A stretch of 37,477 nucleotides of DNA, from contig DAOUKN010000314.1 in NCBI GenBank assembly GCA_034421255.1, forward strand, positions 1-37,477. The letters are read 5' to 3'. Positions 11,133-26,739 of this stretch are shown in pieces (positions within the stretch are counted from its first letter, which is position 1; the number at the start of each line of letters is the position of its first letter). Source of the stretch: Chloroflexota bacterium. GTDB lineage: Bacteria; Chloroflexota; UBA11872. The notes beneath the pieces were generated by a model, which was given only the letters and a program-made list of their open reading frames with translations, had not been told where the DNA came from and searched no databases. The translations under genes were made by a program, and so were the position numbers.

Positions 11133-13004
11133 ATGACGCAGAATGAGCGCGAAACACGAACCATCCAACTCGAGAGTTGGGAAGTCGGTGGTGAGCTGCT
11201 AGACGTCTTATCTCGCGGCTTGTATTCAGATGCGAAAGACACGCTAAGAGAATACGTACAGAACGGCGTCGACGCTGGAGCCAAGCACATCCTGATAACC
11301 GTGGACGGGCCCCAGGTAGTTGTCAGAGACGACGGGACCGGAATGGATGACGAAGGCATTCGAGCTGCTCGCAGATTTGGAATGTCCGACAAGAGTCCCC
11401 AAGAAATGGTGGGATACCGTGGAATCGGAATCTATTCTGCCTTTGGCATATGCGAAGAGATGTCGATCACAAGTCGCCGAGAAGGAATGTCACACTTAGT
11501 GGGTTGGAGATTTAAGTTTGGTGAAATGCGGCGTTTGCTTGAGAGCGACAAAGCATCTGATGTCAGGCAAGGAATTGGATTGCCAGATCTATTGCGCGAG
11601 TATACAGAACTATTCACCGAGCCCTACTACGGAAATGTTGATGACCACTTCACCGTCGTCGAGCTTGACGGCATTGATGACGAGTACCGCGCGCAATTGA
11701 ATGACGCCGCAGAGGTAAACAGCTACCTGCTGCGTACGATTCCCGTTGCATTTGAGTCAGAGGGCTATGGAATCGCAGTCAATGAATGGGTCGCAGAGCA
11801 TGTTGGACTGAATCCTGTTCGGATCTCGCTACGGATTGCAGACGACACTGAGTTTGACGTTTTGCCGCCAGTGGCTACAGATGTCTATAGGGCAGAAACA
11901 GACTGGATCAAGGCCCCGGATGGTACAACCCTAGCGTTTGTATGGTACGCCCTTTCCACAAATGGTCGACAGCTTCCTTCGTATGATGGATCGTCAGTGA
12001 GTGGATTCTTACTGAAGATCAGGGGATTCACACTTGGCAATAGGGATTTGCTTAAGCCGCTTTGGCCCGCCGTTGGCGGGCGCACCCTGTATCATCACTA
12101 CACAGGCGAAGTCCACATATTGGGAACTGCGCAACTGTTTCCCAATGCAGCCCGAGATGACCTGGAATCGAGTCCGGCCAAGCAGCAATTTTCGAAATTG
12201 GCATCGGACTTCTTCTATCCTCTGAGCCGTAAGGCACGAACAATGCAAGCCCAAGCTCGCGCTGTCCGTCTTTTGGGTGGCATCGATGCGACGATCGCGC
12301 GGTTCAATGCACTAAGAGATGCACCTGATTCGAATGCGTTCGAACTATACCGGGAGAGTGAAGATTACCGAACTGGCCTAGAAAACGTATATCAGGAGAT
12401 TCGCAGGCACATGAGGAAGCCTCGGGGGCGACCACGCACGCAATTCGACAGTGTCCAGAAGGCTTCGCTAGACGACGTACTTCAGCAGCTACAACAGTCG
12501 ATAAGGCAACTGGGAGGAGTGGTAAAGGGTGCCCAGCGTAGGACTCAGAAGACTGGTGCCCACGGTAACCAACGCTCGACGCAACTGCCGCCGCAAGCTC
12601 TTCTACTAAACAAAGCTCTTGAGGCAACCGTCGCAATGTCGGAGAAGTCAGCGGATATTCGATACAGAGAGGCCGTGGCAGCCTTGAGGCCATTGGTCCG
12701 CATGAGGGCGATTGCACGCGCAGTAGGCGTCCTCGACAACCTCAAGGCCTCGGGTACAGAACTTGGAACAGACCTAGAAGCGTCCAGAAGGGAACTGAGA
12801 TCAGCCATTGGGTGGTCTCCGCTGGCACCAGTCTCACTGGAGGAGGCCCTTGGACAACAGGGAGTATCTCTGGAAGACGATGAGGAAAAACTGATTAGAG
12901 CAGTTGACCGTGGACTAATCGCAGGACTAGGAGGACGAGGAGATGCATATGAAGCAGTCTTGCGGGCCATCGCCGATTCGTTAGCTGAGGAACGGGGGAG
13001 CTAG
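11133..13004 (+). CDS. GHKL-superfamily ATPase (HATPase_c_3 / MORC-MutL-like), paralogue 1
   Basis: 623 aa. Bergerat-fold motifs: N-box REYVQNGVDAG, G1 VRDDGTGM, G2 GYRGIGIYSAFG. The C-terminal half is alignable with the 18039-19640 protein (GEVHIL....PNAARDDLE against GELHIV....PNARRDYFE). Confidence 0.8.
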   Translation: MTQNERETRTIQLESWEVGGELLDVLSRGLYSDAKDTLREYVQNGVDAGAKHILITVDGPQVVVRDDGTGMDDEGIRAARRFGMSDKSPQEMVGYRGIGIYSAFGICEEMSITSRREGMSHLVGWRFKFGEMRRLLESDKASDVRQGIGLPDLLREYTELFTEPYYGNVDDHFTVVELDGIDDEYRAQLNDAAEVNSYLLRTIPVAFESEGYGIAVNEWVAEHVGLNPVRISLRIADDTEFDVLPPVATDVYRAETDWIKAPDGTTLAFVWYALSTNGRQLPSYDGSSVSGFLLKIRGFTLGNRDLLKPLWPAVGGRTLYHHYTGEVHILGTAQLFPNAARDDLESSPAKQQFSKLASDFFYPLSRKARTMQAQARAVRLLGGIDATIARFNALRDAPDSNAFELYRESEDYRTGLENVYQEIRRHMRKPRGRPRTQFDSVQKASLDDVLQQLQQSIRQLGGVVKGAQRRTQKTGAHGNQRSTQLPPQALLLNKALEATVAMSEKSADIRYREAVAALRPLVRMRAIARAVGVLDNLKASGTELGTDLEASRRELRSAIGWSPLAPVSLEEALGQQGVSLEDDEEKLIRAVDRGLIAGLGGRGDAYEAVLRAIADSLAEERGS

Positions 13005-13012
13005 AGGCCGTA

Positions 13013-14011
13013 ATGGCGCCAAGGGGCCGACGGCGGCGGCCAGGTTTTCAATCAAGCCAAGACAAAGACCTAGTTCGAGAAAAGTATGATCTCCCGTTAG
13101 TTGAAGCAGTCGCTCGTCGGAAGGCCGGCCCAATTCGGTACTTTGGACTACCTGGAGTTCAGGCGCTGGATCTACGGAGTTGGGGGCATCTCTGCGAGTA
13201 TGTGGCTGCCGTTGAGGTTTTTCCCGATCAGTTTCAACAGTTGAAACATCAATTGAGGACTCAGTTCGGCACCCTGGACCATCGGGCCCATTTGGGTGAT
13301 GTCGATGAGGTCATTCTGAGAAACGGAGGTCGTAATTCACAATGGACGTTCGTGTCGACGACGTTCCGCGAAGACGTCGGCTTCATATGGGATTTCGATG
13401 TCGTTTATTTGGACTACTATGGGAAGTTCCTTCCGTACAATAGAGGCGGTCCCGGAGTGCAGAAAAGAGCACGTGCCTTGCGACACCTATTCGCTTCGGA
13501 CCGACAGAACGCATGGCAGCCATGGCTCCTTATCCTTACAGTCGAGTCTCGGCTCTTCGGACCGCAAGACAGAAGCCAGATGCGTCAATTCCTAACAGTG
13601 TCCAAGGAACAAGCCGACGAGGAGACAGGAACCATAATCGACTACCTCTTGTCTGAAGCTGGAACCGCGACTGACCAGGCAGCAAGATTGGTACATGGTA
13701 CCCTCAGCTACATCATTGCCCTGGCAGCGAGCAATTCTGATGTGAGCATCTCACCCAGACCTACTGTCCTGTACCGCGGCGGGAACAACACACCCATGCT
13801 TCATTTCGCCTATGAAATGAGCCCTTCAGATCTGTTGTCCGGCTATAGTTCGGTTCTACCGCTGCTAAGGTCTCCCTTTCTACGCGTACGCCACGATTAT
13901 GCCGAGCCATGGTTTCAGTTGTTGCCTTCTCAACCACCCGGACAGACAGAGTCTGATCTACGGGCAACGTTGGATTTCCTGGACGACCGACAAATCAAGC
14001 AAATCGTATAG
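13013..14011 (+). CDS. Hypothetical protein, weak Rossmann/methyltransferase-like pattern
   Basis: 332 aa, starting 9 nt after the GHKL-1 stop. The pattern YFGLPG ... AAVE ... GDVDE ... FDVVYLDYYG ... LLILTVE is reminiscent of SAM-MTase strand order, but no canonical DPPY/NPPY or PC motif is present. Confidence 0.55.
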   Translation: MAPRGRRRRPGFQSSQDKDLVREKYDLPLVEAVARRKAGPIRYFGLPGVQALDLRSWGHLCEYVAAVEVFPDQFQQLKHQLRTQFGTLDHRAHLGDVDEVILRNGGRNSQWTFVSTTFREDVGFIWDFDVVYLDYYGKFLPYNRGGPGVQKRARALRHLFASDRQNAWQPWLLILTVESRLFGPQDRSQMRQFLTVSKEQADEETGTIIDYLLSEAGTATDQAARLVHGTLSYIIALAASNSDVSISPRPTVLYRGGNNTPMLHFAYEMSPSDLLSGYSSVLPLLRSPFLRVRHDYAEPWFQLLPSQPPGQTESDLRATLDFLDDRQIKQIV

Positions 14012-14037
14012 GGTCCTTCCCAAGCGATCAGCACAAT

Positions 14038-15045
14038 TCACCCTCTACTCTGCCTCTCGATACGCTTAACTGCTTCTCGAATTTTACGAAGCTCGAAGAG
14101 GCACTTCTTGCGTTGCTCTACATCCATGTCTTTCATATCAGGAATCAGATCCCTATCTAGAAGTCCCTTGCGAAATCTCTTGAAGCGGTTAAGCCACATG
14201 TTGTCGACGCCACGATCCCTAGCGCTTTCGAATGCTCGTTCAAACGTCCCTTCCCCGGACATCAGGATCTTGATTGGCTGAGGGCCTGCTTTGGCAACAT
14301 CAAGAACCTTGACCAGTTTATCCCTGACGTCTCTTGCCGTTTCAATTTCGTTGCTCTTGATCTTCTTGACAACCACGTCATCCAAACCCGGGTTCCTCTG
14401 GCGAGCCTTCTTTACAGCGTTTGACTTTAAGTACTCGTCGTAATAGCTCCATCTATTTACATCGTTCTCGTCGTGATCAACCATGAATTGGTACGTGCTC
14501 ACAAGGTGATTCACGAGTCGACTTGAAAGACCCATTTCTTCAGACATAGTTTGAACACTGACGCCGTGCATGGCATTGCGGCGATATAGGTAACCTGCTT
14601 GCTCGAACGGTGCCCAGTCCTTCCGTCCGATGATGTGGTACTCGCCGAGCAGTGCAAATACAAGCTTCTCGCTTATGTCCGCGGGCAGCAGCCGCACTTT
14701 GGCTTTGCCCCACCGCACAGCATCTAATCTAGCAAGTTCACGATATGCAGCGAGTCTGCTGTTCCCCTCAAGTACTACAAGGTCACCACTCCTCACCAAC
14801 ATGGGGTCCGTAAGGCCACCGTTTGCCCTTATTGATTGGATGAGTTGTTTGACGTGATCCATTCTGTTCAGCCGCTTGTGAATCTCTTCTTGAGACGGCA
14901 CATCATGCTGCCTCTGTATGAACGAGTAAATCCTCGGGTTATCGGAATAGAAACTCAGATCAAGGACAGGAAGGTACCCGCTTTTGACCGGCACCTCCTG
15001 ACCTCCAAGTGTGAGGGAGTCGTCGACCCACGCGTAATCGGTCAT
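14038..15045 (-). CDS. ParB/Sulfiredoxin-domain protein, paralogue 1
   Basis: ATG at 15045 with GGGAGG 8 nt upstream (the ORF track gives TTG at 15048). ParB N-terminal box DPMLVRSGDLVVLEGNSRLAAY, then WAPFEQAGYLY. Last gene of the minus-strand operon. Confidence 0.75.
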   Translation of the reverse strand: MTDYAWVDDSLTLGGQEVPVKSGYLPVLDLSFYSDNPRIYSFIQRQHDVPSQEEIHKRLNRMDHVKQLIQSIRANGGLTDPMLVRSGDLVVLEGNSRLAAYRELARLDAVRWGKAKVRLLPADISEKLVFALLGEYHIIGRKDWAPFEQAGYLYRRNAMHGVSVQTMSEEMGLSSRLVNHLVSTYQFMVDHDENDVNRWSYYDEYLKSNAVKKARQRNPGLDDVVVKKIKSNEIETARDVRDKLVKVLDVAKAGPQPIKILMSGEGTFERAFESARDRGVDNMWLNRFKRFRKGLLDRDLIPDMKDMDVEQRKKCLFELRKIREAVKRIERQSRG

Positions 15046-15066
15046 CAAATGTGCCTCCCAACTGGC

Positions 15067-16536
15067 CTATGCATTCAATATGGCCCGCAGAATTCCCCCA
15101 AATTCATAGGACATCTCCTTCCGATAGGCCTCCCTGTCGATATCTCCCTGTGCGAACTGTGCTGCTACGCGTTTCGAGTGAAGCAACGCTTCAATCCACT
15201 CGTCAATTGAGTCGCGCATAATCAGGTTATGGACGTGGCATACCCTATCCTGGGATATCCGATGGACCCTGTCCTGAGCCTGCAGATAGTCGTCCAAACT
15301 GAACATCCGGTCGTAGAAGACAACGTGGTTCGCCACGGTCAGAGTCAGGCCTTCCTTTGCCGAGCCTGGTGTGGCAATGAACACCTTGGCACTTGGCTCA
15401 TCAAGAAAGGTCCGAATTGCATCGGACTGCTCCCTTGTGCTCAGCATGCCGTGGACCTGCTGCGGGCTGTGCTGGCGCAGAACTTTCGCCAGCCACTGGA
15501 CGTTCTCTACGAAGGACGTCCAGACAATACACTTCTCACCACCCTTGACTATCGAAGAGACCACCTCCAGCAGAGTCTCAAGCTTCCCGGGCTCAACCTG
15601 GTAGCTCGGATCAACCAAGGTGGGATTCGACGTGAGCTGTACGAGCCGGAGTAGGCGCTTCAACACCACGTCCGACTCGTCGGCCACGAGCTTTCCGTCC
15701 CGGAAGATGATAGCTCGGAGAGACTCCCTTACTTGTCGGTAAATCTCTCGCTGCCTCGGTTCCCATTCGGTCACCACAGAATGCACGACTTTCTCAGGCA
15801 AGCTTATCTTGGCACTTGCCTTAGTCTCCCTCACGGCAAAACCCGAGATTGAGTGAAATATGCGCTGCAGCTGAGTCTCTAGAGCCTTCTGCCGGCTATT
15901 GGCCCCGGCTAGGTCGGCTGACAGGTTCACTGAGCGCTTGAATTCTCCGAAATCGTCTCCAAGCGATGCACCGGAGTCGAGGAATTTGATCTGCGACCAG
16001 ATGTCGTGTGGGCGATTCGACACCGGGGTTCCGGACATTATCACTCGCCTAGTGAACATTGGCGCGAGACCGAGGAACACGCGGGTAAGAGCAGCGTCGG
16101 GGTTCTTGATCTTGGTGGACTCGTCGAGTATCACTCCGACATTCCTAGTCTTTAGAAACAAGTGCATTCGTTCCTCTTCGGCTCTCACGGCCTCATAGTG
16201 AGCGAGCATGACCCGAGCGGGACTGTTGAAAACATAGAAGTTTCCACTACGGCTCGTGGTCAGGACTCGAGGAACGAGTTGAGAGTGAGAAGCGAGTTCG
16301 TTCTGCCAGTTGTTGAGAAGTCCCTTCTTGACAACGATCAATGCTGTGTCCAATAACCGGTGCGACAGCCAGTAGACTATTAGGTCTATTGCAACCTTTG
16401 TCTTGCCCAACCCCTGCTCATGAAATATGGCAGCGTACTCAAGATCCTTGACGGCATCAACAGCCTCCAACTGGTATGCGAACGCCTGGTGTTTCAGGGT
16501 TAGGTCTGGCTCCCTCTTTAGTGTCAGCTTCTGCAT
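15067..16536 (-). CDS. SNF2-family helicase/translocase
   Basis: 489 aa. Motif I EQGLGKTKVAI, motif II VILDESTKIKN. C-lobe EGLTLTVANHVVFYD and motif VI QAQDRVHRISQDR. The start overlaps the upstream nuclease gene by 13 nt. Confidence 0.9.
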   Translation of the reverse strand: MQKLTLKREPDLTLKHQAFAYQLEAVDAVKDLEYAAIFHEQGLGKTKVAIDLIVYWLSHRLLDTALIVVKKGLLNNWQNELASHSQLVPRVLTTSRSGNFYVFNSPARVMLAHYEAVRAEEERMHLFLKTRNVGVILDESTKIKNPDAALTRVFLGLAPMFTRRVIMSGTPVSNRPHDIWSQIKFLDSGASLGDDFGEFKRSVNLSADLAGANSRQKALETQLQRIFHSISGFAVRETKASAKISLPEKVVHSVVTEWEPRQREIYRQVRESLRAIIFRDGKLVADESDVVLKRLLRLVQLTSNPTLVDPSYQVEPGKLETLLEVVSSIVKGGEKCIVWTSFVENVQWLAKVLRQHSPQQVHGMLSTREQSDAIRTFLDEPSAKVFIATPGSAKEGLTLTVANHVVFYDRMFSLDDYLQAQDRVHRISQDRVCHVHNLIMRDSIDEWIEALLHSKRVAAQFAQGDIDREAYRKEMSYEFGGILRAILNA

Positions 16537-16979
16537 TGATCCGACCTACGTGAAGATTTTGTTGCATTCAGCCGATTCATTTCGGACAGAACGACGGTTT
16601 CAAATTGAGGCAATCCGACTCCGGCTCGAAAGTTTGCGAGTAATTTCCCCGCGAGTCGCTCAATGGGCCAGGGCACTGCCAGTATGAAGACAGAGCCGTC
16701 CGCCATCCCACATCTTCTTAGGAATGCTGTGACTTGAGCCTCCGTGTGCGAGTTCTCCAGGTCCGCCATACTCTTGGCTTCTCCAATGACCACTCGTCCC
16801 TGTTCGTCGAGCATGATATAGGCATCAGGTACGTACCCTTCGATGGGAGGTGGGCGATGCGTCGATTGACTCCCTACGGAGTCGGTAAGGACACGTTCTC
16901 CCCGACCTTCACAGAATCTCTCCGAGATATATCTGTGGAGTATGGCAACCAAGTTCGCGTGTTCCATTGATTCAGGCAT
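16524..16979 (-). CDS. PD-(D/E)xK restriction-endonuclease-fold protein
   Basis: 151 aa. GYVPDAYIMLDEQGRVVIGEAKS gives the PD...E-A-K catalytic pattern. Overlaps both neighbours: 8 nt with ParB-2 and 13 nt with SNF2. Confidence 0.65.
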   Translation of the reverse strand: MPESMEHANLVAILHRYISERFCEGRGERVLTDSVGSQSTHRPPPIEGYVPDAYIMLDEQGRVVIGEAKSMADLENSHTEAQVTAFLRRCGMADGSVFILAVPWPIERLAGKLLANFRAGVGLPQFETVVLSEMNRLNATKSSRRSDQCRS

Positions 16980-18000
16980 TGGTGGTGGACGGCGAGGCGA
17001 TGAGCCTACAGAGTTCAGCCAACTGATCCCTGGCGTCGGTTAGAGCGAGATTCTCAGGAGTATTGAGGTCTTCGCGAAGGCGAAGCAAGTCAGCGTAAGC
17101 CATCTTGGCTATTCGATTCGATAACGCGTCGGTCAATTGGACCAATGTGGCGTCCTCCAAGGCCTCAACCGTCGAGGGGCTGTCCAGCACTTTTTCGGCC
17201 TCACGCGCTCCGTGTGTAAGAAACACACGCTGGGCCTGTGGATTGCCGAGGATCGCGGGGAGTTTTCTGACACGGTCACTCGGATACAGAATCTGATCTT
17301 TAACCCACCCGGCGAAGTCTTTCTTCGTGTAGCCTGAGGTTACGAGAGCTTCCTGCACTCTTGGGGCTTGCATTTCAAGAAAGGCGCTGAACCGCGTCGG
17401 ATCAAACTGATCGTCACTTGCGAGAAGAGTTCGGTAATGGTCCTCCATGTCGTTGTAGGCGTCGATGAATCGGTGCACCTCGGTCCTCTGCCCGCCGCAG
17501 AAATCGATAATCTGATCCGTTGTCAGGTGCTCCGAGTTGCTGAGATAGTCGAGGTACTTGGCCTTGGAGTAAGGGTCCCACTGCCTCGGACCAACTAGGT
17601 GAGCTTGGAGCCGAATGGCATCAATTTCCTTTTTGTCAAGCCGGTCGTAGACGATCGCTGGGATTTCGTCCCATCTACCACTATCATCGTCCCGTCTGAA
17701 CTGGCGGTAGATCAGGGCACGGGTATTCCCCTCGATGACAACTAGCCTATTCACGGTTTCTCGGTTGACCAGAATGGGATGGATTAGCCCGCCATGCGTC
17801 CTGATCGACGCCCTTAAGCTCTGAAAGGTGGTCGTACTCTCTCCTTGCTCGTAGTTGGCAGCTCCAAGTGCAAGACTCATCTGTTCATTGGTTACGTCTC
17901 CACCATACATCTCAATGTAGCGCGCCACCCGTGGATTGGACGCATCGAGCACAAGCGTCTCGACCGGAAGTGCCTCAAATTGACCGTTGCCTGCAGCCAT
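16972..18000 (-). CDS. ParB/Sulfiredoxin-domain protein, paralogue 2
   Basis: ATG at 18000 with GAGGAGG 6 nt upstream (the ORF track gives 18018). ParB box HPILVNRETVNRLVVIEGNTRALIY, then WDPYSKAKYLDY. Collinear with the 14038-15045 protein. Confidence 0.75.
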   Translation of the reverse strand: MAAGNGQFEALPVETLVLDASNPRVARYIEMYGGDVTNEQMSLALGAANYEQGESTTTFQSLRASIRTHGGLIHPILVNRETVNRLVVIEGNTRALIYRQFRRDDDSGRWDEIPAIVYDRLDKKEIDAIRLQAHLVGPRQWDPYSKAKYLDYLSNSEHLTTDQIIDFCGGQRTEVHRFIDAYNDMEDHYRTLLASDDQFDPTRFSAFLEMQAPRVQEALVTSGYTKKDFAGWVKDQILYPSDRVRKLPAILGNPQAQRVFLTHGAREAEKVLDSPSTVEALEDATLVQLTDALSNRIAKMAYADLLRLREDLNTPENLALTDARDQLAELCRLIASPSTTNA

Positions 18001-18038
18001 GCTGTACCTCCTCAGCAAACATCAGCCGAACGGGGACC

Positions 18039-19640
18039 CTAGCTCGGCATCGGTGCGCCAGTGTCATCAAGTGTCAGCCGGGCCTGAGAATCATTCACAG
18101 CCCCTTGGTCGGGATCTTCGGCTGAACCATCTCGCCCCACCCTGGAGGCTTCTGCGAACACGATCTCAATCAGTTCTCTCGCGGATCCCGGTGAGGGCGC
18201 GAGAGTCGCTAATGCCCCAAATAGTTTTCTGTACACAACAGCCTCTGCGTGAGGCACGTCGCCGAACTGCTGCGGATCGGTCCCGACTGAAAAGTTGTTC
18301 AGCTTGTCTTCCGCACTATCTAGCCTCTCAAGAGTGCCATTGTCGAGTTTTCTTTTACCGACGCTGTTGCGAATCTCCTCCACTTCCCGCAATGCTTGCC
18401 GAACCAAACCGGTCGAGTCCCTTGAGGTGAGATAGCCGGACGTCGCTAGGGCATAGAGGTCCTCGACATTGCTCAGTGCAGCGAGCATCTTCCTAGCACG
18501 GTTGCGAGCCGTGGACTCCCGCCTGCACCGCGTGACGATGCTGCGCAGAATAGGTATCAAATGGTTCTCGAGGTTACGCAGATGGGGTCCGAGTTCAAAG
18601 TAGTCACGCCTGGCGTTGGGAATGATTCGTGAGTCCACGATGTGCAGTTCGCCCACACACCATCGGTTGAAGCGTTCCTCTGAAAAAAGGTGGTCGAACA
18701 CTGCTTCGCTACCAATCTGAATATTCCCCACCCTGGCCCTGATGCCACGCACTCGCTGGTTTTTTGGGATCGCGCTCAGGTAAGATGAATGTGCGACCCA
18801 GCCAATGGCCGCATCACCAGTGTCGTCGACGCTAGGTATGCGGACTGCCTGAAACTCAGTATATTCGGCATTCCTATTTGCCGAGAGTTGGATTGATTTC
18901 CCGTATGGTCTCTTTACCGGGCCAGGATCTCCTTTCAACAGTACTTCAAATGTGAGCGGTGCTTCAGCGTGATGGAACAGCCCTTCGACACTGTCGGCAA
19001 AGGGGAAGTTTGAGCGCATGGGAACCGGGCACGCTTCGCTCACATAGTCGCGCACCGCGTCGCGATTGAGCAGCAATCCCGTGGAGTGACGCGCCACGTC
19101 TCCAACTTCGACCTCAAAGAAGTGCTCAGGATGATCCGGCCCTGGCAGGGACTCCACGTCGACGCAGCCAAGAATGGCATCTTCAAGCTTTAACTTCGAG
19201 GAAGTCAGCTGCGGAAGCCGGTCGCTATGCCATGTGATTCGGGTTACAACCTCAGCCTCGTGGGCGCGTGTGGTGAATGAAACCGTCTTCGCGAAGGCGA
19301 GGCCGGCGAGCCTTCCGACGCCACGGAATCCCCTGTCTATTCCCAGTGTCTTGTCACTTCGTCCAATGGGCAAGAGCCGCTCAAGCGCATCTTCGGGAGA
19401 CAGGCCCGGACCGTTATCTCGAATCCTGATCCGGCGTTCAGCGACATCGATCGTGATTTCTACCCTCGCTCTTCGGGATAGCCCACTCGTCGCGGCAGCA
19501 TCGGCCGCATTTTGTATGTACTCCCTGTACATGGACAGCGGGTCGTGGTACATCCCGGTTGTCACAAGGCCGAGAAGGCCTGCACCCGAGAGCATAGACG
19601 TTTTCTGAGCGTCGAGCGGATTAGTGATGTCCGTAATCAA
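18039..19640 (-). CDS. GHKL-superfamily ATPase (HATPase_c_3 / MORC-MutL-like), paralogue 2
   Basis: 533 aa. N-box REYIQNAADAA, G1 IRDNGPGL, G2 GFRGVGRLAGLAF. The TTG start overlaps the radical SAM stop (TTGA), so the two are probably translationally coupled. Confidence 0.8.
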   Translation of the reverse strand: MITDITNPLDAQKTSMLSGAGLLGLVTTGMYHDPLSMYREYIQNAADAAATSGLSRRARVEITIDVAERRIRIRDNGPGLSPEDALERLLPIGRSDKTLGIDRGFRGVGRLAGLAFAKTVSFTTRAHEAEVVTRITWHSDRLPQLTSSKLKLEDAILGCVDVESLPGPDHPEHFFEVEVGDVARHSTGLLLNRDAVRDYVSEACPVPMRSNFPFADSVEGLFHHAEAPLTFEVLLKGDPGPVKRPYGKSIQLSANRNAEYTEFQAVRIPSVDDTGDAAIGWVAHSSYLSAIPKNQRVRGIRARVGNIQIGSEAVFDHLFSEERFNRWCVGELHIVDSRIIPNARRDYFELGPHLRNLENHLIPILRSIVTRCRRESTARNRARKMLAALSNVEDLYALATSGYLTSRDSTGLVRQALREVEEIRNSVGKRKLDNGTLERLDSAEDKLNNFSVGTDPQQFGDVPHAEAVVYRKLFGALATLAPSPGSARELIEIVFAEASRVGRDGSAEDPDQGAVNDSQARLTLDDTGAPMPS

Positions 19641-21262
19641 ATCAGTTGCGTGCCCTTGATCGCGACTGCTTCGTCATGGTCGAATAGGCCGGCATCTTCA
19701 ACGATTTCGTCTTCCTCAAGGTAAGTTCCGTACCCGGCCATTTCCTTGATGAGCTGACGACCGTTCGTCTTCGCGTCGTCCTTAGTATCCAACCCGTGGA
19801 ATGCCATCAACTGTCGGATTTTTCGGTCGACTGTTTGGTCGTTCGCCAACTCCCGAAAATGCCTTGGCCCCATTCCATTCCCGTTGGACGGATTAGCCAG
19901 TAGACGCACCAACTCCCTCTCCTGGGAATCTGAAAGGCGCTGGCGAAGCGAGTCATACTCCTCTCTCTGGGCTCTCCCCTCTCCCTCTTCAAAGTACTCT
20001 CGGTGGAATATGAAGGCATGCGGCTGCCTGAGCAGCCTCTCGAATTCTTCAGCATTGTCGCCATAGGCTCTTAGGAAAAAGGGTGGGCTTCCACTGACAA
20101 CCCCCTTGGTTGCCTGGAGCATGAGTTGGAACGAACGGAGGTAATACCGGTTCCACCTTTTGCCCACGTGTGACCGGTCCTTCAAAGTCACAGGCTGGTA
20201 CCGCATCGGGAAAGACCAAATACGGATCCCCAACTCCTCATTTAGATCGATATTGAGACGCATTCGCAGGTAGAGGTCTGTTGGAGTGTCCATGAAGTTG
20301 TACAGCATGTAATTGGACAAAGAGGTAATCTGATTGTCTGCGGCCATGCGAATCGACCGCTCGTAGACCTTTCGGACGCCGATATGGTCGAAGGCGATTC
20401 GAAGGGGGCTGATGCAGATCGTCGACATCTCGCGTAGGAACATTTCCGACTTGGCGAGGATTCGTGCGTCCACTCCCTGGTTGAAGTCCACTCGGCGCTT
20501 GACTGGCCTGTTGCTACCGCGTATCAGCTTGGCTCCCGGCGTGAAGCCCAGGTCGCGTATCTCCGCAATCACCTCTTTGTAGCGAGCCGATGCGGTGATG
20601 TTGTTGTCCATGAGCACGAGGTCCTTCTTCTCCCCGTGTCGCTTGATAACGCCTTCAACTAGATTGACAAGTGGTGGCATCTCGCGTTGGGCGCCCTCCA
20701 ACTTCGGCACTCCGCAGAATGAGCACTTCCTCACGCATCCACGCGACGCGTATCCGAAATACGCATCATGCACTGGGTAGCTGTAATTGATGTGTTCGAG
20801 GATCCCATAGTCGGGAACTAGTTCCTCGATCGGTGTACCGAACAAGTCGTCGGCTCCGAAGTCATAGTCGTCAGCCGACAACGCGAGGGAAGCTGCCGGA
20901 GGACCGTCGAGTATACCTTTGACGAAGCGTACGCCAGCCCAGCGAGATTCATTGAGGAATGCATCGAGCATGAGCGAGACTGCAATTCCGCCAACAAACA
21001 CATTTTCCGGTTGACCGCCTGCAGCCCGTATGGCGAAGTCAATTGCCGAAGCAGTGCGACTCCACTCAAAGGTGAAGAGAGTGGTCACATAGACTCGGTC
21101 CCATGCTTGATTCAGCACCTCATGGTCTTCACCCTTTATGAACTTGACGCGGTCGCCTCGGCCGGATCTTCCGTGATAGGCGGCAAGTTTCATCAAACCC
21201 AATGGCGGATATTTGTTCGGGTAGTTGGGTTCAATTAGCAGGACCTCCTTGGATGGCATCAT
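19637..21262 (-). CDS. Radical SAM enzyme with B12-binding-like N-terminal domain
   Basis: The CxxxCxxC cluster CVRKCSFC is encoded at 20714-20737, which I verified by hand translation. The N-terminal LIEPNYPNKYPPLGLMKLAAY resembles the B12-binding-domain rSAM class. ATG at 21262 is preceded by GAGGGG (the ORF track gives TTG at 21265). Confidence 0.8.
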   Translation of the reverse strand: MMPSKEVLLIEPNYPNKYPPLGLMKLAAYHGRSGRGDRVKFIKGEDHEVLNQAWDRVYVTTLFTFEWSRTASAIDFAIRAAGGQPENVFVGGIAVSLMLDAFLNESRWAGVRFVKGILDGPPAASLALSADDYDFGADDLFGTPIEELVPDYGILEHINYSYPVHDAYFGYASRGCVRKCSFCGVPKLEGAQREMPPLVNLVEGVIKRHGEKKDLVLMDNNITASARYKEVIAEIRDLGFTPGAKLIRGSNRPVKRRVDFNQGVDARILAKSEMFLREMSTICISPLRIAFDHIGVRKVYERSIRMAADNQITSLSNYMLYNFMDTPTDLYLRMRLNIDLNEELGIRIWSFPMRYQPVTLKDRSHVGKRWNRYYLRSFQLMLQATKGVVSGSPPFFLRAYGDNAEEFERLLRQPHAFIFHREYFEEGEGRAQREEYDSLRQRLSDSQERELVRLLANPSNGNGMGPRHFRELANDQTVDRKIRQLMAFHGLDTKDDAKTNGRQLIKEMAGYGTYLEEDEIVEDAGLFDHDEAVAIKGTQLI

Positions 21263-21354
21263 CAACCCCTCAAACTGACCTTTTGAGCGTCCAAAACTGT
21301 GCCGCGAAACTGGTCTAACACTCTACGCTGCCTTTCTGAGAGAGATGCTTGATA

Positions 21355-21543
21355 TCATGGATTATTTTCCTGTTTCGCTCGTGGTTTGGATTGCCCGTCA
21401 AACGCGCTCTCGTCAAGATGATCCCGAATTAACCGAGCTATCAATGTACTTTTCTTGAAGCCCCTCTCTTGGCAGTAGGCGTCGAATCGGTCAAACTCCT
21501 CAGAGTCTAGGAGAACGCTGATTTTCGCACGTCTACGGTTCAT
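21355..21543 (-). CDS. Ribbon-helix-helix (CopG/MetJ-like) DNA-binding protein
   Basis: 62 aa. The N-terminal beta-strand pattern KISVLLDSEEFDRFDAYCQERGFKKSTLIARLIRDHL is typical of RHH proteins. GGAGAAAGG RBS. First gene of the minus-strand operon. Confidence 0.7.
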   Translation of the reverse strand: MNRRRAKISVLLDSEEFDRFDAYCQERGFKKSTLIARLIRDHLDESAFDGQSKPRAKQENNP

Positions 21544-21563
21544 GCCTACACCTTTCTCCGTTG

Positions 21564-21592
21564 CTTATAGCTCACTTCTACTCATAAGTCAA
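21564..21592 (-). promoter_or_regulatory. Sigma70-type promoter for the island operon
   Basis: On the minus strand: TTGACT (21592-21587), a 17-nt spacer, then TATAAG (21569-21564). This lies about 20 nt upstream of the RHH start codon. Confidence 0.55.
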
Positions 21593-21970
21593 CACATTTG
21601 CTCATATGTGCGCATCAGCTGTCGATGACCGCTGACATCTGTGAGAGGCGCGACAGATCGGGTAAGACCGGGTCCACAGACATCGTGATGGAGGGGCTTT
21701 CCCGTGGGAGACTTCAAGTGACCGCTACACGTCTATGAGGATGGGCAGCCAACAGGCCCGGGACATGGAGTCAACGGGCAAGCGGGGTTCTTGCTGGTGG
21801 TCGGGAGGCGGGTCGCGATGGACTTCGAGGAGGCCCGTGCAGACTTTATCCTCGGTATCCGCACCCAGGTCATACTCCTTTTCCACACGAGGATAGATTG
21901 GCCTTGGCCTCCCAGGCCTGCCACAACTGCGCAGCTCTGCTTGACTGCATCGCGTCCCTGTCTCCTCCGG

Positions 21971-22342
21971 CTATGCTCTGGCCTCTATAACGACGTGGCC
22001 CCCGCTCTCGACTTCGATGTTCAAGTTGTGCCTGTCGAGCAGCAGCATACCCACCAGTGGTGTGCTGCCGGTCGCGTCGGCCTTAATATGTCTCGGCTGG
22101 CCGTCCCAGAGCACAGTCACGTCGTGGACATCGAAGCTCACAACGTCGTCGTTTGCCAGAAACGCCCAGCCCATGTGCGAAAACGACAACCCCAAGTCAG
22201 CAACCACGGCGGTCGGCAACGTCAAGGTGCCGGTGTAGCCAGTGTCGATAACGGCCTGGATGTCCCGCGTCCGTCCATCTGGGCCCTGTAAGGGAAGGGT
22301 CACCACCGCTTCATAGGCAGCATTCACGGCCCCTTCAATCAT
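21971..22342 (-). CDS. Retropepsin-like (clan AA) aspartyl protease
   Basis: 123 aa with the active-site signature VIDTGYTGTLTLP (D-T-G) and a C-terminal GMLLLD flap-like segment. Overlaps the upstream partner gene by 4 nt. Confidence 0.75.
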   Translation of the reverse strand: MIEGAVNAAYEAVVTLPLQGPDGRTRDIQAVIDTGYTGTLTLPTAVVADLGLSFSHMGWAFLANDDVVSFDVHDVTVLWDGQPRHIKADATGSTPLVGMLLLDRHNLNIEVESGGHVVIEARA

Positions 22343-22826: not shown

Positions 22827-25202
22827 CTAGCGTCCCGCGCCGACCGGCGCCCGCTCCTGTTCCAACGCCCATTCGAACAGGGACAGCGCCGGAGCCGGAG
22901 CCTTACGGCGGCGGCGCTTCGGCTTCGCCGGCGGCTCAGCCATGAACTCCGCCCAGGAGAACAGCGACGGCTGTCCCTCGTCGGCCTCGGCCTCGTGGCC
23001 GTGGGCCCCGTTGCCGTTGACCGGGACAGGCGCGTGGCCGTTCCCGTTGGCGTGGCCGGTGTCCGGGACCAGCTCGAAGCTCGGTCCGAGCCCGATGGCT
23101 TCGTGATGGCCGTTGCCGGTCGCTCCGTTGCCGTTGACCGAGACGGCCGACGGCTCGACCTCGACCGCCTGCCAGCCATCGTCCACCAGCAACTCCTCGG
23201 CGCTGGCGGCGGCGTCCCGCGCTTGCGCAAACACCGCCTCCACCGTTTCGGCGTCGGCCTCGTGCTGCCCATTTACGATCTGGCGGGCCAGCGCCATCAT
23301 CAGGTCATCGCCGTCGTCGCCGTAGGCGGCCAGGCCATCCTCGGGCAACTCCCCCTCGACGGCCAGCGAGCTTTGCAGCTTCTTGGCCACCAGTTTCAGC
23401 GCGTCGGCCTGGAGGGTGTTCCGGTAGGCCATGAAGACGACCTTGACGGGGCGCGTCTGGCCGATGCGCCACGAGCGGCGCGAGGCCTGACGCATGGTGT
23501 AGACCGAGTAGTCGGTCTCGTACCAGCAGATGGTGGGGAAGTCCACCAGATCGAGGCCGGTCTGCACCAGCCGGGGGTGGCAGATCAGCACGTCAACGCC
23601 CTCGTTGACCTTCCGCGCCACCCACGCCTCGCGACGGTCCGGGGGCACGGCGGCGGCCTTCATCACCGCGACCCGGAACCCGTGCCGGGTGAGGATGTCA
23701 TCCATCCGTTCGGTAATGTCCCGCGTCCCGGTGTGCGTGGCGTAGACCAGCACCCGGCGGCCCGCCATGCGCTCGCCGGCCACCAGGTCCATCAGGGCCT
23801 GCTCCTTGGGGTAGAGCCGGTCCTCCGACAGCGGCGGGACCTGCACGAGGATGTCGCCGGTGCTGGGATCGAACACCGTCTCGCCGCGCGTACAGCCGTC
23901 GGGATAGGCCAGCAGCGTCTGCAGGTAGGTGGCCAGCAGCCGCTTGGAGCCCGTCGAGAGCGCGTCGGCGAGGGCGGCGCGCAGCTCCTCGAAGACGTGG
24001 ACGTACGCCGTCCGCTGGGAAAAGCCCGTGGCGTCGGGGTCGCGGTCCATCGAGGTCAGCCGCACCTGCTCGTCGTAGGGCGGCAGCCCGGAGGCTACGT
24101 CCGCGAGTCGGAGGAACACGCTGTGGCCGATGAGATGGAAGAGCGCCGCGGGCGCCAGCCCCGGTCGCTCCCGGACCACCTTGCGGTAGCGCCGGCGGCG
24201 GCTTGCGCGCCCGTCCTCCAGCGCGGTGTCGTCGGGCCGGCCGACGGTATGCTCGACGAAGCCGTAGCGTTCGATCCAGCGCGACTCCTCCGAGCGCCCA
24301 AACTCCGTCCTGATCTCCGGGCTGAACCGATAGAGCAGGTGGAAGAGCGTGGAGGCGTAGCCGCCCATCAGGGTGCCCGACAGGCTCAGAGACGTGCCGC
24401 AGGCGTCGGCGAGGATCCCGGCGGCGATGCCCTGCGCGGAGCCGCGGCCCTTGTACTCATGCACCTCGTCGCCGATGAGCAGGTCGAAGTATCCCTTCAT
24501 CCGGTGCTTCACGTAGTCGGCGAGCGGGTAGCGCTTGGGGCCGGCGGCGTCGGCCTGCCAGAGGGGCGCGGCGCAGTGCTGGCAGCGGTGCTTGCGGCGG
24601 GCCAGCGCCCGCGCCGTCAGCGGCACCCCGTCCTTGTCCACGATCTGGCCGGCGCAGGACGGGCAACAGGGGACGCGGAACGGCGCCCCGGTTTCCTCGT
24701 CCCGCACCAGCCGGCCGTTGGCGGCGGCCCAGCGCTCGACGACGGCGGGCTGCCAGCGGTAGGAGAGCTTGGCGCGTTCGCGGGACATGACGGCGAAGCA
24801 GGGACCGGCGCCGCTCCAGCGGCGCAGGCTTTCCAGGTCGGTGATGGAGGCGACGATGGCGGTCTGGGCGCCGGGCACCGTCGCCTCCACCTCGCGCTTC
24901 CACTTGCGGGTCAGGTGCGGCGGGCACAGGACCAACACCCGGTGGAAGTCCGCCGCGTGGGCGGCTGCGGCGGCGATGAAGGACTTGCCGGTCCCCATCT
25001 CGCCGACGATGGTGGTGCCGCGGTGCGCCCGCAGCGAGAGGGCCGCGCCGCGGATGGCGTCCGCCTGCGCCCCCAGGGGCGAGCGGAGCAGGCGGGGGAG
25101 GTCGTGGCCGATCTCGGACGGCCGGTACAGAGGCGGGTAGGACTCCACCACCCGCTGGGCGATGGCGTCCTTGTAGGTGTCGATGAACGCTCCGAGGTTC
25201 AT
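22827..25202 (-). CDS. SNF2/DEAD-like helicase with inserted zinc ribbon
   Basis: ATG at 25202 preceded by GGAAGGAG (the ORF track gives 25262). Walker A GEMGTGKS, motif II LIGDEVHEYKG, Zn-ribbon CPSCAG...CQHCAAP, motif VI QASRRSWRIGQTRPV. The C-terminal tail has NGNG low-complexity repeats. Confidence 0.85.
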   Translation of the reverse strand: MNLGAFIDTYKDAIAQRVVESYPPLYRPSEIGHDLPRLLRSPLGAQADAIRGAALSLRAHRGTTIVGEMGTGKSFIAAAAAHAADFHRVLVLCPPHLTRKWKREVEATVPGAQTAIVASITDLESLRRWSGAGPCFAVMSRERAKLSYRWQPAVVERWAAANGRLVRDEETGAPFRVPCCPSCAGQIVDKDGVPLTARALARRKHRCQHCAAPLWQADAAGPKRYPLADYVKHRMKGYFDLLIGDEVHEYKGRGSAQGIAAGILADACGTSLSLSGTLMGGYASTLFHLLYRFSPEIRTEFGRSEESRWIERYGFVEHTVGRPDDTALEDGRASRRRRYRKVVRERPGLAPAALFHLIGHSVFLRLADVASGLPPYDEQVRLTSMDRDPDATGFSQRTAYVHVFEELRAALADALSTGSKRLLATYLQTLLAYPDGCTRGETVFDPSTGDILVQVPPLSEDRLYPKEQALMDLVAGERMAGRRVLVYATHTGTRDITERMDDILTRHGFRVAVMKAAAVPPDRREAWVARKVNEGVDVLICHPRLVQTGLDLVDFPTICWYETDYSVYTMRQASRRSWRIGQTRPVKVVFMAYRNTLQADALKLVAKKLQSSLAVEGELPEDGLAAYGDDGDDLMMALARQIVNGQHEADAETVEAVFAQARDAAASAEELLVDDGWQAVEVEPSAVSVNGNGATGNGHHEAIGLGPSFELVPDTGHANGNGHAPVPVNGNGAHGHEAEADEGQPSLFSWAEFMAEPPAKPKRRRRKAPAPALSLFEWALEQERAPVGAGR

Positions 25203-25381
25203 GTCGAGTCTCCTTCCGTGCGATGGGGCCTGAGGACGACGCCGGGACCCGGGACGCGCCACGCCCCCGGCGGGGACGTGTCAGCGCGGCGGGTTCCCTG
25301 GACACGTCCCCAGGCGGTGGTTGAACGGGCAAGGCCCGCCGGTGGCGGGGCCTTGTGGATGCGGCGGTGCGTGGCCGCCGT

Positions 25382-25588
25382 CTACGCGGCCTTCGGCTCC
25401 TGCCGGCGGTCCGCGGTTGCGGCGCTGGCGTCGTCGGCGCAGCGGCCCGCGAGGTGGGAGACCCTCACCGGGGAGGCGACGGCCCGTCCACCGATGATGT
25501 CCACCGAGGCGGTCTGCCTGACGGGTTCGCCGGGGCGGATGGGCCGCCCGCACTGGCAGCAGGCCTGCGGCGTCATGGTCAGCTGCAT
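25382..25588 (-). CDS. Small hypothetical protein (68 aa)
   Basis: ATG preceded by AAGGAAGG. Contains CCQCG. Followed by two GC hairpins (25270-25311 and about 25333-25356). No family assigned. Confidence 0.45.
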   Translation of the reverse strand: MQLTMTPQACCQCGRPIRPGEPVRQTASVDIIGGRAVASPVRVSHLAGRCADDASAATADRRQEPKAA

Positions 25589-25637
25589 TGGTCGACCTTC
25601 CTTTCTTTAAGGGGGTTGCGGTTCCTTCCTAATGACG

Positions 25638-25677
25638 CGAGGCCCCGTCGGTTCCCGTGAGGGCCGACGGGGCCTCG
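25638..25677 (-). terminator. 14-bp perfect stem hairpin after the methyltransferase stop
   Basis: CGAGGCCCCGTCGG (25638-25651) pairs with CCGACGGGGCCTCG (25664-25677), with a 12-nt loop. It lies 25 nt downstream of the stop at 25702 on the minus strand. There is no clear U-tract. Confidence 0.45.
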
Positions 25678-25701
25678 TGACGCGACGCTGGGGGGCGCCG
25701 T

Positions 25702-26739
25702 CTAGGCGGTGATGTCGGTGATCTGGCCGTCGTCCAGGTCGAGGGCGACGACGGTGGTCGACAGCCGCTCGCGGTAGATCTCCTTGTCCGCGGTGGTCTC
25801 GACCAGGACCATCGCCTTGGAGGTCCGGCCCTTGACCAGGACGCGCCGGCCGTCGGCCTCCAGACAGAGATTGTCCAGGAAGCCCGCCGCGACCAGCATG
25901 GCCAGGTGACCCCGGCGCAGCGGCATCAGCGGACGGGTCCTGTGATCCCCGGTGGGCCAGAGCGCGTCCGTGATCTGCGGGCTGGTCCAGAGTCCCGATC
26001 GACGGGCCTCGGCCGCCGCCGCCAGCGGATCGACGCGACGGGTGGTGAAGAGGATGTCCCCAGCGGGCGTGGTCGGCGGGCTGACCACCGGATAGGGGGA
26101 GAGCCCCAGCGGTTCCGGCGCGCCCTCGGCCCACGCCCTGATGCGATCCGCGGCGTAGGCATCGGCGGTCGGCTCCGCTTTGCGGGCGCCCATCAGCACC
26201 ACCTGGTCAAAGACCGCGCGCTCGGGGTCCGGGAAGGCCCAGCACCGCAGCCGCCCGTAGTGCGAGGCCAGATAGCGGGCCGAGACCGTCAGCCGCTGGC
26301 GGGGGACGATGAAGACCAGGAGGCCCCCGTCCGCCAGGTAGCGGGTCGCGTGGACCAGGAAGCTGTGCTCCGTCCGCTTCCGTTCGGCATCGTGATCGTA
26401 CGGCGGATTGAGGTACAGCAGTCCGAAGGCTCGGTTGGCGATGGAGGTCTGGAACAGGTCGGCGGCGAGGACGCGGTCGATCCGTTCCTGCGCCTCGCTC
26501 GCCCGGTCCCGGTGCAATTCCACACCATAGGTCTCGACGGGGAGGGTCCCCCGGCGACGCAGGTTGTCAGCCAGCTGCGCCGCGGCCTCCCCGGCCCCGC
26601 AGCAGGGGTCGAGGATGCGCAGCGTCTCCCGGTTCCGGGCGTAGGCGCCGGAGGGCGCGTGCACCAGCTCCGCGAGCAGGTGGACGACTCGGGGCGGCGT
26701 GGGGTAGAAGCCCCCTTTCGCCTGGGCGGCCAGTCTCAT
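25702..26739 (-). CDS. N6-adenine (amino-) DNA methyltransferase, orphan
   Basis: ATG at 26739 with AAAGGAGA RBS (the ORF-track 26943 start is an Arg-rich extension). Motif I ILDPCCGAGE, motif IV LLYLNPPYDHD. No adjacent restriction endonuclease. Confidence 0.85.
   Translation of the reverse strand: MRLAAQAKGGFYPTPPRVVHLLAELVHAPSGAYARNRETLRILDPCCGAGEAAAQLADNLRRRGTLPVETYGVELHRDRASEAQERIDRVLAADLFQTSIANRAFGLLYLNPPYDHDAERKRTEHSFLVHATRYLADGGLLVFIVPRQRLTVSARYLASHYGRLRCWAFPDPERAVFDQVVLMGARKAEPTADAYAADRIRAWAEGAPEPLGLSPYPVVSPPTTPAGDILFTTRRVDPLAAAAEARRSGLWTSPQITDALWPTGDHRTRPLMPLRRGHLAMLVAAGFLDNLCLEADGRRVLVKGRTSKAMVLVETTADKEIYRERLSTTVVALDLDDGQITDITA

Follow-up and report, generated by a model that had tools for sequence, protein, structure and literature searches.

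The window analyzed here is a stretch of 37,477 nucleotides from a Chloroflexota bacterium (contig DAOUKN010000314.1 of assembly GCA_034421255.1), and it contains an island of about 11 kb (~11000–22000) with a GC content of ~53%, set against a background of 65–74%. Within this island, six co-directional genes on the minus strand encode a radical S-adenosylmethionine (SAM) enzyme, a GHKL ATPase, a ParB-like protein, a 151-aa protein, an SNF2 protein and another ParB-like protein, with intergenic gaps of −4, +20, −8, −13 and +18 nt. The radical SAM open reading frame (ORF) can be read as 542 aa from a TTG codon (19637–21265), although its likely true form is the 540-aa protein beginning at the ATG at 21259 (19637–21259). 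This ATG is most likely the real start, because a Shine-Dalgarno sequence lies upstream of it (GAGGGG, within GAGGGG-TTGATG-ATG) and because the resulting length matches that of the homologues in the databases, nearly all of which are 540 aa long with an N-terminus of MPS… or MLS…. At its other end, the stop codon of this gene (TGA, 19639–19637) overlaps the TTG start codon, at 19640, of the gene encoding the GHKL ATPase, giving the 4-nt overlap (19637–19640, in the context ATTTGA) that a preliminary description of this DNA had read as TTGA. The GHKL protein is a 533-aa ATPase of the MutL/MORC/Hsp90 type (18039–19640, minus; HATPase_c_3, E 3.8e-11).

The genomic context of this gene pair was surveyed by a scan with one genome per species, which yielded 80 loci, nearly all of them in metagenome-assembled genomes (MAGs). 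A GHKL gene lies immediately downstream of the radical SAM gene on the same strand in 78 of the 80, and 25 of these 78 have the identical 4-nt overlap. The pairing persists in relatives with only 40–46% identity, in some of which the order is reversed: P0250 has the radical SAM gene followed by the GHKL gene together with a DndB-like protein of 770 aa, P0273 carries the same pair with a complete ParB/SNF2 module in an element that also encodes ERF, RadC and DUF932 proteins, P0248 has the GHKL gene first, and approximately 17 IMG/VR contigs show the order NurA, HerA, GHKL and radical SAM, with a 4-nt overlap between the last two. The N-box (ExxxN..D), DxGxG and GFRGIGR motifs of the GHKL ATPase are conserved in 107 homologues; the protein has a weak match in the PDB to the N-terminal region of MutL, and its best NCBIfam match is to an HSP90-family model (E 1.7e-9). 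The radical SAM enzyme and the MutL/MORC-like GHKL ATPase form an evolutionarily obligate pair, adjacent, often overlapping and found in either order.

When the neighboring ORFs of all 80 loci were clustered, four partner modules became apparent. Module A (ParB, 151-aa protein, SNF2, ParB) is present in 53 of the 80 loci, where it lies either downstream of the GHKL gene, the arrangement found here, or immediately ahead of the radical SAM gene; in most relatives the ParB/SNF2 cassette comes before the radical SAM gene and not after it, and the order seen in the window is one of several. Module B (13 of 80) consists of a NurA-like protein, a 565-aa HerA-like P-loop protein and a second GHKL ATPase, and module C (8 of 80) of a protein of ~770 aa with a DndB/DpdB (DGQHR) domain (Pfam DndB, E 5e-14; PADLOC DpdB, E 2.9e-26) and a C-terminal HEPN domain of the Swt1 type. 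Module D, a GHKL protein paired with a 332-aa protein, occurs in 11 of 80 loci, and at two loci all four are missing. Modules A, B and C exclude one another almost completely, and each of them combines a nuclease with a motor, a ParB/DndB-type domain or both. The two-gene core of radical SAM enzyme and GHKL ATPase moves on mobile DNA and pairs with alternative nuclease-bearing modules. The preliminary description had raised the contrary prospect of a housekeeping radical SAM family whose homologues are never linked to GHKL, ParB or SNF2 genes. No housekeeping family was found, and the linkage spans more than 10 phyla and is kept down to ~40% identity; we have therefore set this prospect aside.

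The cluster motif of the radical SAM enzyme, CVRKCSFC, occupies residues 175–182 of the 540-aa protein (177–184 of the 542-aa reading), in agreement with the position of about residue 177 first given for a CxxxCxxC motif, and CxxxCxxC is kept in 80 of 80 homologous loci. In an alignment of 84 diverse relatives it takes the form C175-x3-C179-x-F181-C182 (CxxxCxΦC), all three cysteines being present in 81–82 of the 84 sequences, and no cysteine column outside positions 175, 179 and 182 reaches 30%. As only these three cysteines are conserved, a single cluster is predicted, with no auxiliary cluster of the MiaB type. C282, which is invariant in close relatives, was considered as a catalytic residue and dropped, since the family at large does not retain it.

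The fold of the enzyme was modeled with AlphaFold. A first run on a shallow alignment (64–92% identical sequences) reached a predicted local distance difference test score (pLDDT) of 62 and gave fold matches that were mostly noise except for MtaB; it was superseded by an AlphaFold (AF2) model built from a deep alignment, with a pLDDT of 89.5 and a predicted TM-score of 0.87, in which only residues 502–540 are disordered. The predicted architecture comprises a B12-binding-type Rossmann domain (residues 1–115, with (S/T)xL at 59–61 and GG at 90–91), an acidic linker (116–165), the radical SAM core (166–390, with C175, C179 and C182), a helical domain (391–500) and a disordered acidic tail (501–540, encoded at ~19637–19759 of the window on the minus strand) that contains a conserved VEDAGLF(D/E) peptide. 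Invariant polar residues (D218-N-N, D258-F-N-Q-G, D291 and P351, the last listed with them) lie on the predicted barrel strands. When this model was compared with the PDB using Foldseek, the best match was MgmA (9ccb; E 1.6e-10, TM-scores 0.45/0.56, 14% identity), a B12-dependent glutamine C-methylase (PMC11796369, PMC9401015), followed by MiaB (~2e-9), MtaB, OxsB (3e-8) and RimO, the matches to MiaB, MtaB and RimO spanning E 2e-9 to 8e-7 and the radical SAM matches having a probability of 1.0. MgmA, also known as QCMT, and OxsB (5ul2/5ul3) share with the window protein a B12-type Rossmann N-domain followed by a radical SAM barrel with CxxxCxxC, but the identity is only 10–14%, the C-terminal helical domain and acidic tail of the window protein are unrelated to theirs, and the setting here is one of GHKL ATPases and nucleases on mobile DNA rather than biosynthesis or methanogenesis. 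A comparison of the N-domain by itself retrieves AerR and photocobilin, both of which bind B12.

Profile searches point in the same direction, largely by way of relatives. The window protein scores 20 bits against Pfam Radical_SAM (PF04055), where the gathering score is 29.5, and about 18 bits each against the RimO and rSAM_ladder_B12 models, all of which are sub-threshold, and a PDB sequence search with two family profiles returned only marginal matches to RimO, MiaB and 9ccb. Across the diverse alignment of 84 members, Radical_SAM was detected in 81 (best E 1e-10) and the B12-binding domain PF02310 in 40 (best E 1.6e-8), and the relatives P0249 (35.1 bits) and P0250 exceed the Radical_SAM gathering score. 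(S/T)59-x-L61 and G90-G91 are each found in at least 90% of the 84 sequences, 28 residues apart; in the classical cobalamin-binding domain the motif spacing is SxL-x26–28-GG, and the signature is thus conserved at canonical spacing. The DxHxxG motif is absent, which is the usual state of class B enzymes of the base-off/His-off type. The N-domain had first been described as B12-binding-like and the enzyme as class B-like, and both are borne out by the fold comparison and by PF02310 in relatives, whereas a direct family assignment of the window protein itself failed, every such match being below threshold. On the strength of the motifs and the model, the gene product is a genuine member of the radical SAM superfamily, with one predicted [4Fe-4S]/SAM site and a predicted N-terminal Rossmann domain of the cobalamin-binding type, in a class B-like arrangement.

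Several named families were considered for this enzyme and rejected. The methylthiotransferases MiaB, RimO and MtaB, whose substrates are tRNA or a ribosomal protein, resemble it in having a flavodoxin-like N-domain joined to a radical SAM core and provide the sole weak sequence matches, around the cluster motif; however, none of the 84 members has N-domain cysteines for an auxiliary [4Fe-4S] cluster or a UPF0004 match, there is no TRAM match in Pfam, and the C-terminal region is all-helical in the model. A viperin or prokaryotic viperin (pVip) was dismissed because the cluster at residue 175 lies behind the 115-aa Rossmann domain and not near the N-terminus, PADLOC gave no viperin match and no viperin is among the top 50 fold matches. 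QueE found no match in NCBIfam or Pfam, and the QueE of B. subtilis was reached by Foldseek only at E 0.025 over 202 columns. The initial judgment that the architecture is neither of the viperin type nor obviously that of QueE accordingly holds.

Two further features of the protein are its C-terminal peptide and its distribution of charge. The C-terminal acidic peptide, (E/D)x(V/I)EDAGL(F/Y)(D/E), is kept after a variable linker, and it looks like a docking or auto-inhibitory motif. With a pI of 9.9 and a net charge of +15, the predicted catalytic core is markedly basic, whereas the linker and the tail are acidic (−11 and −7); segment pI values are a crude proxy for surface electrostatics.

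The remaining four genes of the operon constitute the window's copy of module A. The ParB/Srx-superfamily protein that follows the GHKL ATPase (16972–18018, minus) is ~342–348 aa long, with its probable start at the ATG at 18000; it matches ParB_N (E 7.7e-4) and PADLOC PDC-M38A (E 6e-10), and has a conserved GNxR motif. Next is the 151-aa protein (16524–16979, minus), in which a PD…(E)xK pattern (PD-x12-I.EAK) is conserved in 44 homologues; it has no Pfam or PADLOC match and, on its motif alone, is a probable small nuclease of the restriction-endonuclease fold. The SNF2 helicase/translocase (489 aa; 15067–16536, minus) matches SNF2-rel_dom (E 8.7e-27) and Helicase_C (E 2.2e-14) in Pfam, and ZorD (E 7e-46) and DpdE (E 7e-36) in PADLOC. 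The second ParB/Srx-superfamily protein (336 aa; 14038–15048, minus) clusters together with the first, and matches PDC-M38A (E 2e-8) and TIGR00180 parB_part (E 1e-3).

Upstream of the operon lies a conserved leader. A 62-aa ORF (21355–21543, minus) situated 95 nt before the radical SAM gene has a ribbon-helix-helix (RHH) pattern and matches Pfam RHH_9 (E 3.7e-4, below the gathering score) and, more weakly, the RepB regulator and ParG; it is a probable regulator of the operon. The radical SAM gene had been described as leading the operon, which needs amending: it is the first large gene only. The RHH ORF is seen only in the closest loci, where protein identity is 82–86% (L001, L002 and L032) and the DNA changes are mostly synonymous, and identity over the 520 nt upstream of the radical SAM gene is 86% with L001 and 75% with L002 and L032. 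A promoter-like site read from the sequence (TTGACT-17 nt-TATAAG; 21564–21592, minus) is invariant or nearly so among these same loci, although a generic promoter scan did not list it. The conserved leader and the radical SAM gene are separated in L032 by an inserted IS5-like transposase.

Convergent with the operon are the two genes that make up module D: a second GHKL ATPase of 623 aa (11133–13004, plus; HATPase_c_3, E 1.8e-14; BbrUII/HgiDII-like N-terminus, E 4.6e-13) and its 332-aa partner (13013–14011, plus), which has a weak match to the NCBIfam PP_RS20740 family (E 6.9e-9) and conserved YFGLPG and LDYxG motifs. This is the pair that accompanies the radical SAM–GHKL core in 11 of the 80 loci; on plasmids a PIN_8-like and GHKL pair occupies a similar position. 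At the border of the island (21971–22342, minus) is a retropepsin-like aspartic protease of clan AA (123 aa; TIGR03698, E 9e-14), homologues of which (75% and 42% identity) lie 6–8 kb upstream of the radical SAM gene in L039 and L079. Beside the island, a high-GC element (22827–26943 and 31019–32272, minus) encodes an 811-aa SNF2-like helicase with a CxxC…CxxC zinc ribbon, a DUF6094/N6-methylase-like methyltransferase with an NPPY motif and a DnaG-type primase; the same helicase–methylase pair (74% and 71% identity) is found within 6 kb of the radical SAM locus in L048. Att-like repeats, tRNA genes and terminators were sought around the island, and nothing informative was found.

The radical SAM family is very large and almost without a name. 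Word-indexed searches gave 6,922 and 7,389 clusters at 90% identity, so that the family comprises at least 6,900 such clusters, and of 1.84 billion representatives at 50% identity 1,672 matched at E ≤ 1e-3 and 266 at E ≤ 1e-30. Pfam, NCBIfam and PADLOC hold no specific model or name for it, and annotation of its homologues is almost absent, a single NCBI record reading "radical SAM protein". PADLOC has no model for the radical SAM enzyme, the window enzyme has no match there at all, and the ParB-like proteins have only weak candidate matches (PDC-M38A).

The 80 loci cover more than 10 phyla, among them Dehalococcoidia, Binatia, Latescibacterota, Nitrospirales, Gemmatimonadota, Acidobacteriota, Alpha- and Gammaproteobacteria, Poribacteria and Spirochaetia, and many of the MAGs bear the kind of name given to symbionts of marine sponges (Poribacteria, Poriferihabitaceae, Spongiihabitans, Binatia, Dehalococcoidia). 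Across these loci the radical SAM enzyme is the most conserved component, at 64–94% identity, compared with 40–88% for the GHKL ATPase and 23–94% for the ParB-like proteins. The low GC content of the island in the window, together with this degree of identity across more than 10 phyla, implies extensive and recent horizontal transfer within the sponge-symbiont community. The family is also carried by conjugative plasmids of cultured bacteria, namely pNL1 of Novosphingobium aromaticivorans (L091, 119857–121470) and pR132505 of Rhizobium leguminosarum WSM1325 (L092, 14930–16561), and by IMG/VR contigs, and serine recombinases and insertion sequence elements adjoin some of its loci. On pNL1 the set consists of a PIN-like protein, an ATP-binding protein, a 335-aa DGQHR protein, the radical SAM enzyme, another ATP-binding protein and a 769-aa DGQHR protein; on pR132505 module A is followed by DGQHR, radical SAM and GHKL genes and a GHKL/PIN-like pair. 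Both plasmid versions have an extra DGQHR/DndB-like gene of 335–350 aa overlapping the start of the radical SAM gene. TIR/ThsB, SLATT and Eco57I systems, which are typical of defense islands, are among the neighbors of the radical SAM loci.

Relatives of the enzyme are encoded by phages as well. The window protein matches the phage family phrog_9298, annotated as "radical SAM domain protein", at E 5.7e-38. A full-length homologue of 32% identity on the viral contig L114 (8004–9536) lies inside a split family-A DNA polymerase, in the order DnaB helicase, sliding clamp, exonuclease part of the polymerase, radical SAM, polymerase part, DNA methyltransferase and clamp loader. A YqaJ recombinase precedes the homologue on L122, HerA and NurA adjoin that of Marinitoga camini virus 1, and in a Bacteroides LoVEphage a short relative lies amid genes for methylases of the C5 and Dam types and for a PAPS reductase. 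These phage contexts point to DNA or nucleotide metabolism. On L116 and L138 another radical SAM gene, of a different kind (Radical_SAM and Radical_SAM_N2), comes after the phage member.

Given its near-constant pairing with a MutL-like ATPase and with exchangeable nuclease modules on mobile DNA, the radical SAM enzyme probably forms the catalytic core of a hitherto undescribed bacterial system for immunity or for marking DNA. A defense role is suggested by association, through the mobile islands, the defense-type partner domains and the neighboring TIR, SLATT and restriction-modification genes. By analogy, the system resembles known multi-gene, mobile conflict systems of the modification or restriction type. 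Close parallels are the DNA modification-restriction systems Dpd (7-deazaguanine) and Dnd/Ssp (phosphorothioate), which are likewise multi-gene and mobile and combine a DNA modifier with a ParB/DndB-type NTPase (DpdB, DndB), SNF2 or other helicases and nucleases, and whose restriction modules are interchangeable. DpdB is a ParB-like ATPase required for DNA base exchange in Dpd (PMC12839542), and DndB is a ParB-like NTPase that acts with DNA-modifying enzymes (PMC10853773). In contrast to these systems, homologues of TGT (DpdA), DpdC, DndA/C/D/E and Ssp are missing from the operon, and the putative writer is the radical SAM–GHKL pair. Dpd itself was rejected as an identification because a scan of the operon proteins found neither DpdA nor DpdC, only the DpdE-like SNF2 protein and, in sister loci, the DpdB-like protein.

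The GHKL side of the pair recalls the prokaryotic MORC and paraMORC systems (PMC2292703), in which MutL/MORC-like GHKL proteins occur with superfamily II helicases and restriction-fold nucleases in laterally transferred loci; here, however, the invariant partner of the GHKL ATPase is the radical SAM enzyme, and the likeness rests on the GHKL domain and its neighbors. Neither "radical" nor "ParB" occurs in the text of that study (Iyer, Abhiman & Aravind 2008, PMC2292703), and a full-text search of the literature found no description of a radical SAM–GHKL system. The only radical SAM-based defense that the literature turned up besides the prokaryotic viperins was Ophion, which combines a radical SAM enzyme (OpnA) with a PHP phosphatase and a phosphoribosyltransferase (bioRxiv 10.1101/2025.09.30.679545). 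In viperins and Ophion a radical SAM enzyme is the catalytic component of an anti-phage system, as is proposed here, but the partners in the present case are GHKL, ParB, SNF2 and nucleases, and Ophion was rejected as an identification since the operon encodes no PHP or phosphoribosyltransferase domain.

The substrate of the enzyme is probably nucleic acid, and specifically DNA, given the ParB-, DndB- and DpdB-like partners, the basic core and the replisome and DNA-methylase contexts of the phage members. The preliminary description had proposed that the enzyme could act directly on DNA or nucleotides, for example by C-methylation; what it said of architecture and linkage is confirmed, while this substrate and chemistry stand as a proposal drawn from context. 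The mechanism that we favor, tentatively and at somewhat short of even confidence, is one in which the radical SAM–GHKL pair would be the writer of a modular defense system resembling restriction-modification and would modify DNA by radical chemistry; it draws on the analogy with Dnd, Ssp and Dpd, the replisome setting in phages and the basic catalytic core. Under this mechanism, the GHKL ATPase would dimerize on DNA and use ATP to clamp or deform it, while ParB/DndB-type NTP-dependent DNA clamps and the SNF2 motor would load, spread or translocate the complex. The 5′-deoxyadenosyl radical generated by the radical SAM enzyme could then alter a DNA nucleotide at a carbon that does not normally react, probably by cobalamin-mediated methyl transfer, with cobalamin as the methyl carrier if the N-domain binds it. 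The nuclease modules would act on DNA that does not carry the mark or, in a type IV-like variant, on DNA that does. The acidic VEDAGLF peptide would probably dock the enzyme to a partner, or cover the basic face of the active site until DNA is delivered.

Other readings of the same locus have to be weighed against this one. The radical SAM enzyme might instead make a chain terminator or an antimetabolite from a free (deoxy)nucleotide, with the GHKL ATPase as a sensor of infection or activator and the nucleases as a second line. There are precedents in viperin, which produces ddhCTP, and in B12-dependent OxsB, which acts on dAMP, dADP or dATP in the production of oxetanocin, and radical SAM defenses of this kind exist in the pVips and Ophion (bioRxiv 10.1101/2025.09.30.679545). 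OxsB is moreover among the top fold matches (E 3e-8), the basic core would suit such a substrate, the conservation of the enzyme (64–94%) far above that of its partners is what a fixed small-molecule substrate predicts, and the distant relative P0316, in which a Metallophos gene overlaps the radical SAM gene, is reminiscent of OxsB–OxsA. However, the radical SAM enzymes known to modify nucleotides in defense stand alone or pair with enzymes of nucleotide metabolism, not with GHKL, ParB, SNF2 and nucleases; the loci show no conserved kinase, NTPase or phosphoribosyltransferase partner, PADLOC detected no viperin, and the likeness to OxsB is no better than that to MgmA or MiaB. We consider this alternative unlikely. 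We regard as less probable again a role in protein modification, in which the enzyme would C-methylate or otherwise alter a side chain of the GHKL ATPase, another component or an invader protein, presented as a client by the Hsp90/MutL-like ATPase. Its attraction is that the best Foldseek match is a protein glutamine C-methylase and that the GHKL ATPase itself best matches an HSP90-family model (E 1.7e-9), and the tight translational coupling and docking-like tail suggest a stable complex of enzyme and partner. Yet the likeness to MgmA is at the level of fold only (14% identity, TM-scores 0.45–0.56), the accessory modules are all directed at DNA or RNA, the phage homologues lie in replisome and DNA-methylase modules without a GHKL gene, and no conserved small ORF resembling a precursor peptide lies beside the pair, the RHH ORF being confined to the closest loci.

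An RNA-directed role would have a MiaB-like enzyme modify or damage tRNA or rRNA, shutting off translation upon infection together with HEPN or PIN RNases. The strong fold matches to MiaB, MtaB and RimO (E 2e-9 to 8e-7) and the HEPN and PIN-like partners, which are typically RNases, are compatible with this, but the family has no auxiliary-cluster cysteines, TRAM domain or UPF0004 match, and the dominant module, with its ParB, SNF2 and PD-ExK proteins, handles DNA; we think this reading very improbable. Only slightly more credence is given to the suggestion that the module serves not immunity but the mobile element that carries it, by modifying plasmid or ICE DNA against restriction during transfer, or in partition, maintenance or addiction through its ParB-like proteins and with its nucleases as toxins. 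That conjugative plasmids, contigs resembling prophages and recombinase-bearing islands carry it would suit such a purpose, and, as relayed in PMC10853773 from Maindola et al. 2014, plasmid ParB-superfamily proteins act in inter-plasmid conflict. On the other hand, SNF2 proteins of the ZorD/DpdE type, HEPN, NurA–HerA, PIN and DndB are hallmarks of defense, the TIR/ThsB, SLATT and Eco57I neighbors are typical of defense islands, and this suggestion would still require nucleic-acid chemistry by the radical SAM enzyme, so that it differs from the DNA-writing mechanism in purpose and not in chemistry.

A number of observations weigh against the writing of DNA by the pair. The fold does not single out DNA as the substrate, because MgmA acts on protein, MiaB on tRNA and OxsB on a free nucleotide. 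The window protein has no match to the B12-binding model PF02310 at E ≤ 1, falls under every Pfam B12-binding threshold and reaches just 20 bits for Radical_SAM. A core pair with no nuclease module beside it is exceptional (2 of 80 loci), whereas modification modules of the Dnd type often occur alone, and an integrated sensor–effector complex would fit this rarity of nuclease-free cores as well as a writer does. The HEPN and PIN partners, being usually RNases, suggest abortive infection rather than restriction, and we know of no radical SAM enzyme that sets a routine epigenetic mark on DNA. Finally, some relatives have no GHKL neighbor: P0249 adjoins a giant DEAD helicase, P0316 has the overlapping Metallophos phosphoesterase gene downstream, and P0372 (L088–L090; 398 aa, 34% identity), which retains both domains and an intact cluster and has no C-terminal domain, directly follows genes for a MetH-like protein (Pterin_bind and B12-binding) and MTHFR in biogas-reactor bacteria. 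This one-carbon, methyl-cobalamin context of P0372 could hint at the ancestral chemistry of the family.

A more far-reaching form of the DNA-writing mechanism, which we regard as doubtful, is that a mark set by the radical SAM enzyme would be the self-signal of a widespread, modular, restriction-like immunity, making this the first radical SAM epigenetic writer of DNA, spread horizontally through sponge-symbiont communities and borne by plasmids of cultured Alphaproteobacteria. Direct radical chemistry on DNA would, if confirmed, be categorically new. Were the DNA-writing mechanism true, radical and possibly B12-dependent chemistry would join the few known ways of marking or attacking DNA in genetic conflicts, and a large class of orphan bacterial GHKL/MORC-like ATPases would gain its first functional partner. 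The cultured and genetically tractable carriers of pNL1 and pR132505 are ready experimental models for the system. Whatever the mechanism, the enzyme belongs to a very large conserved family (at least 6,900 clusters at 90% identity and ~1,700 at 50%) with an obligate partner and a modular grammar that is directly testable, and its 64–94% identity across MAGs of more than 10 phyla is a striking case of community-wide horizontal transfer.

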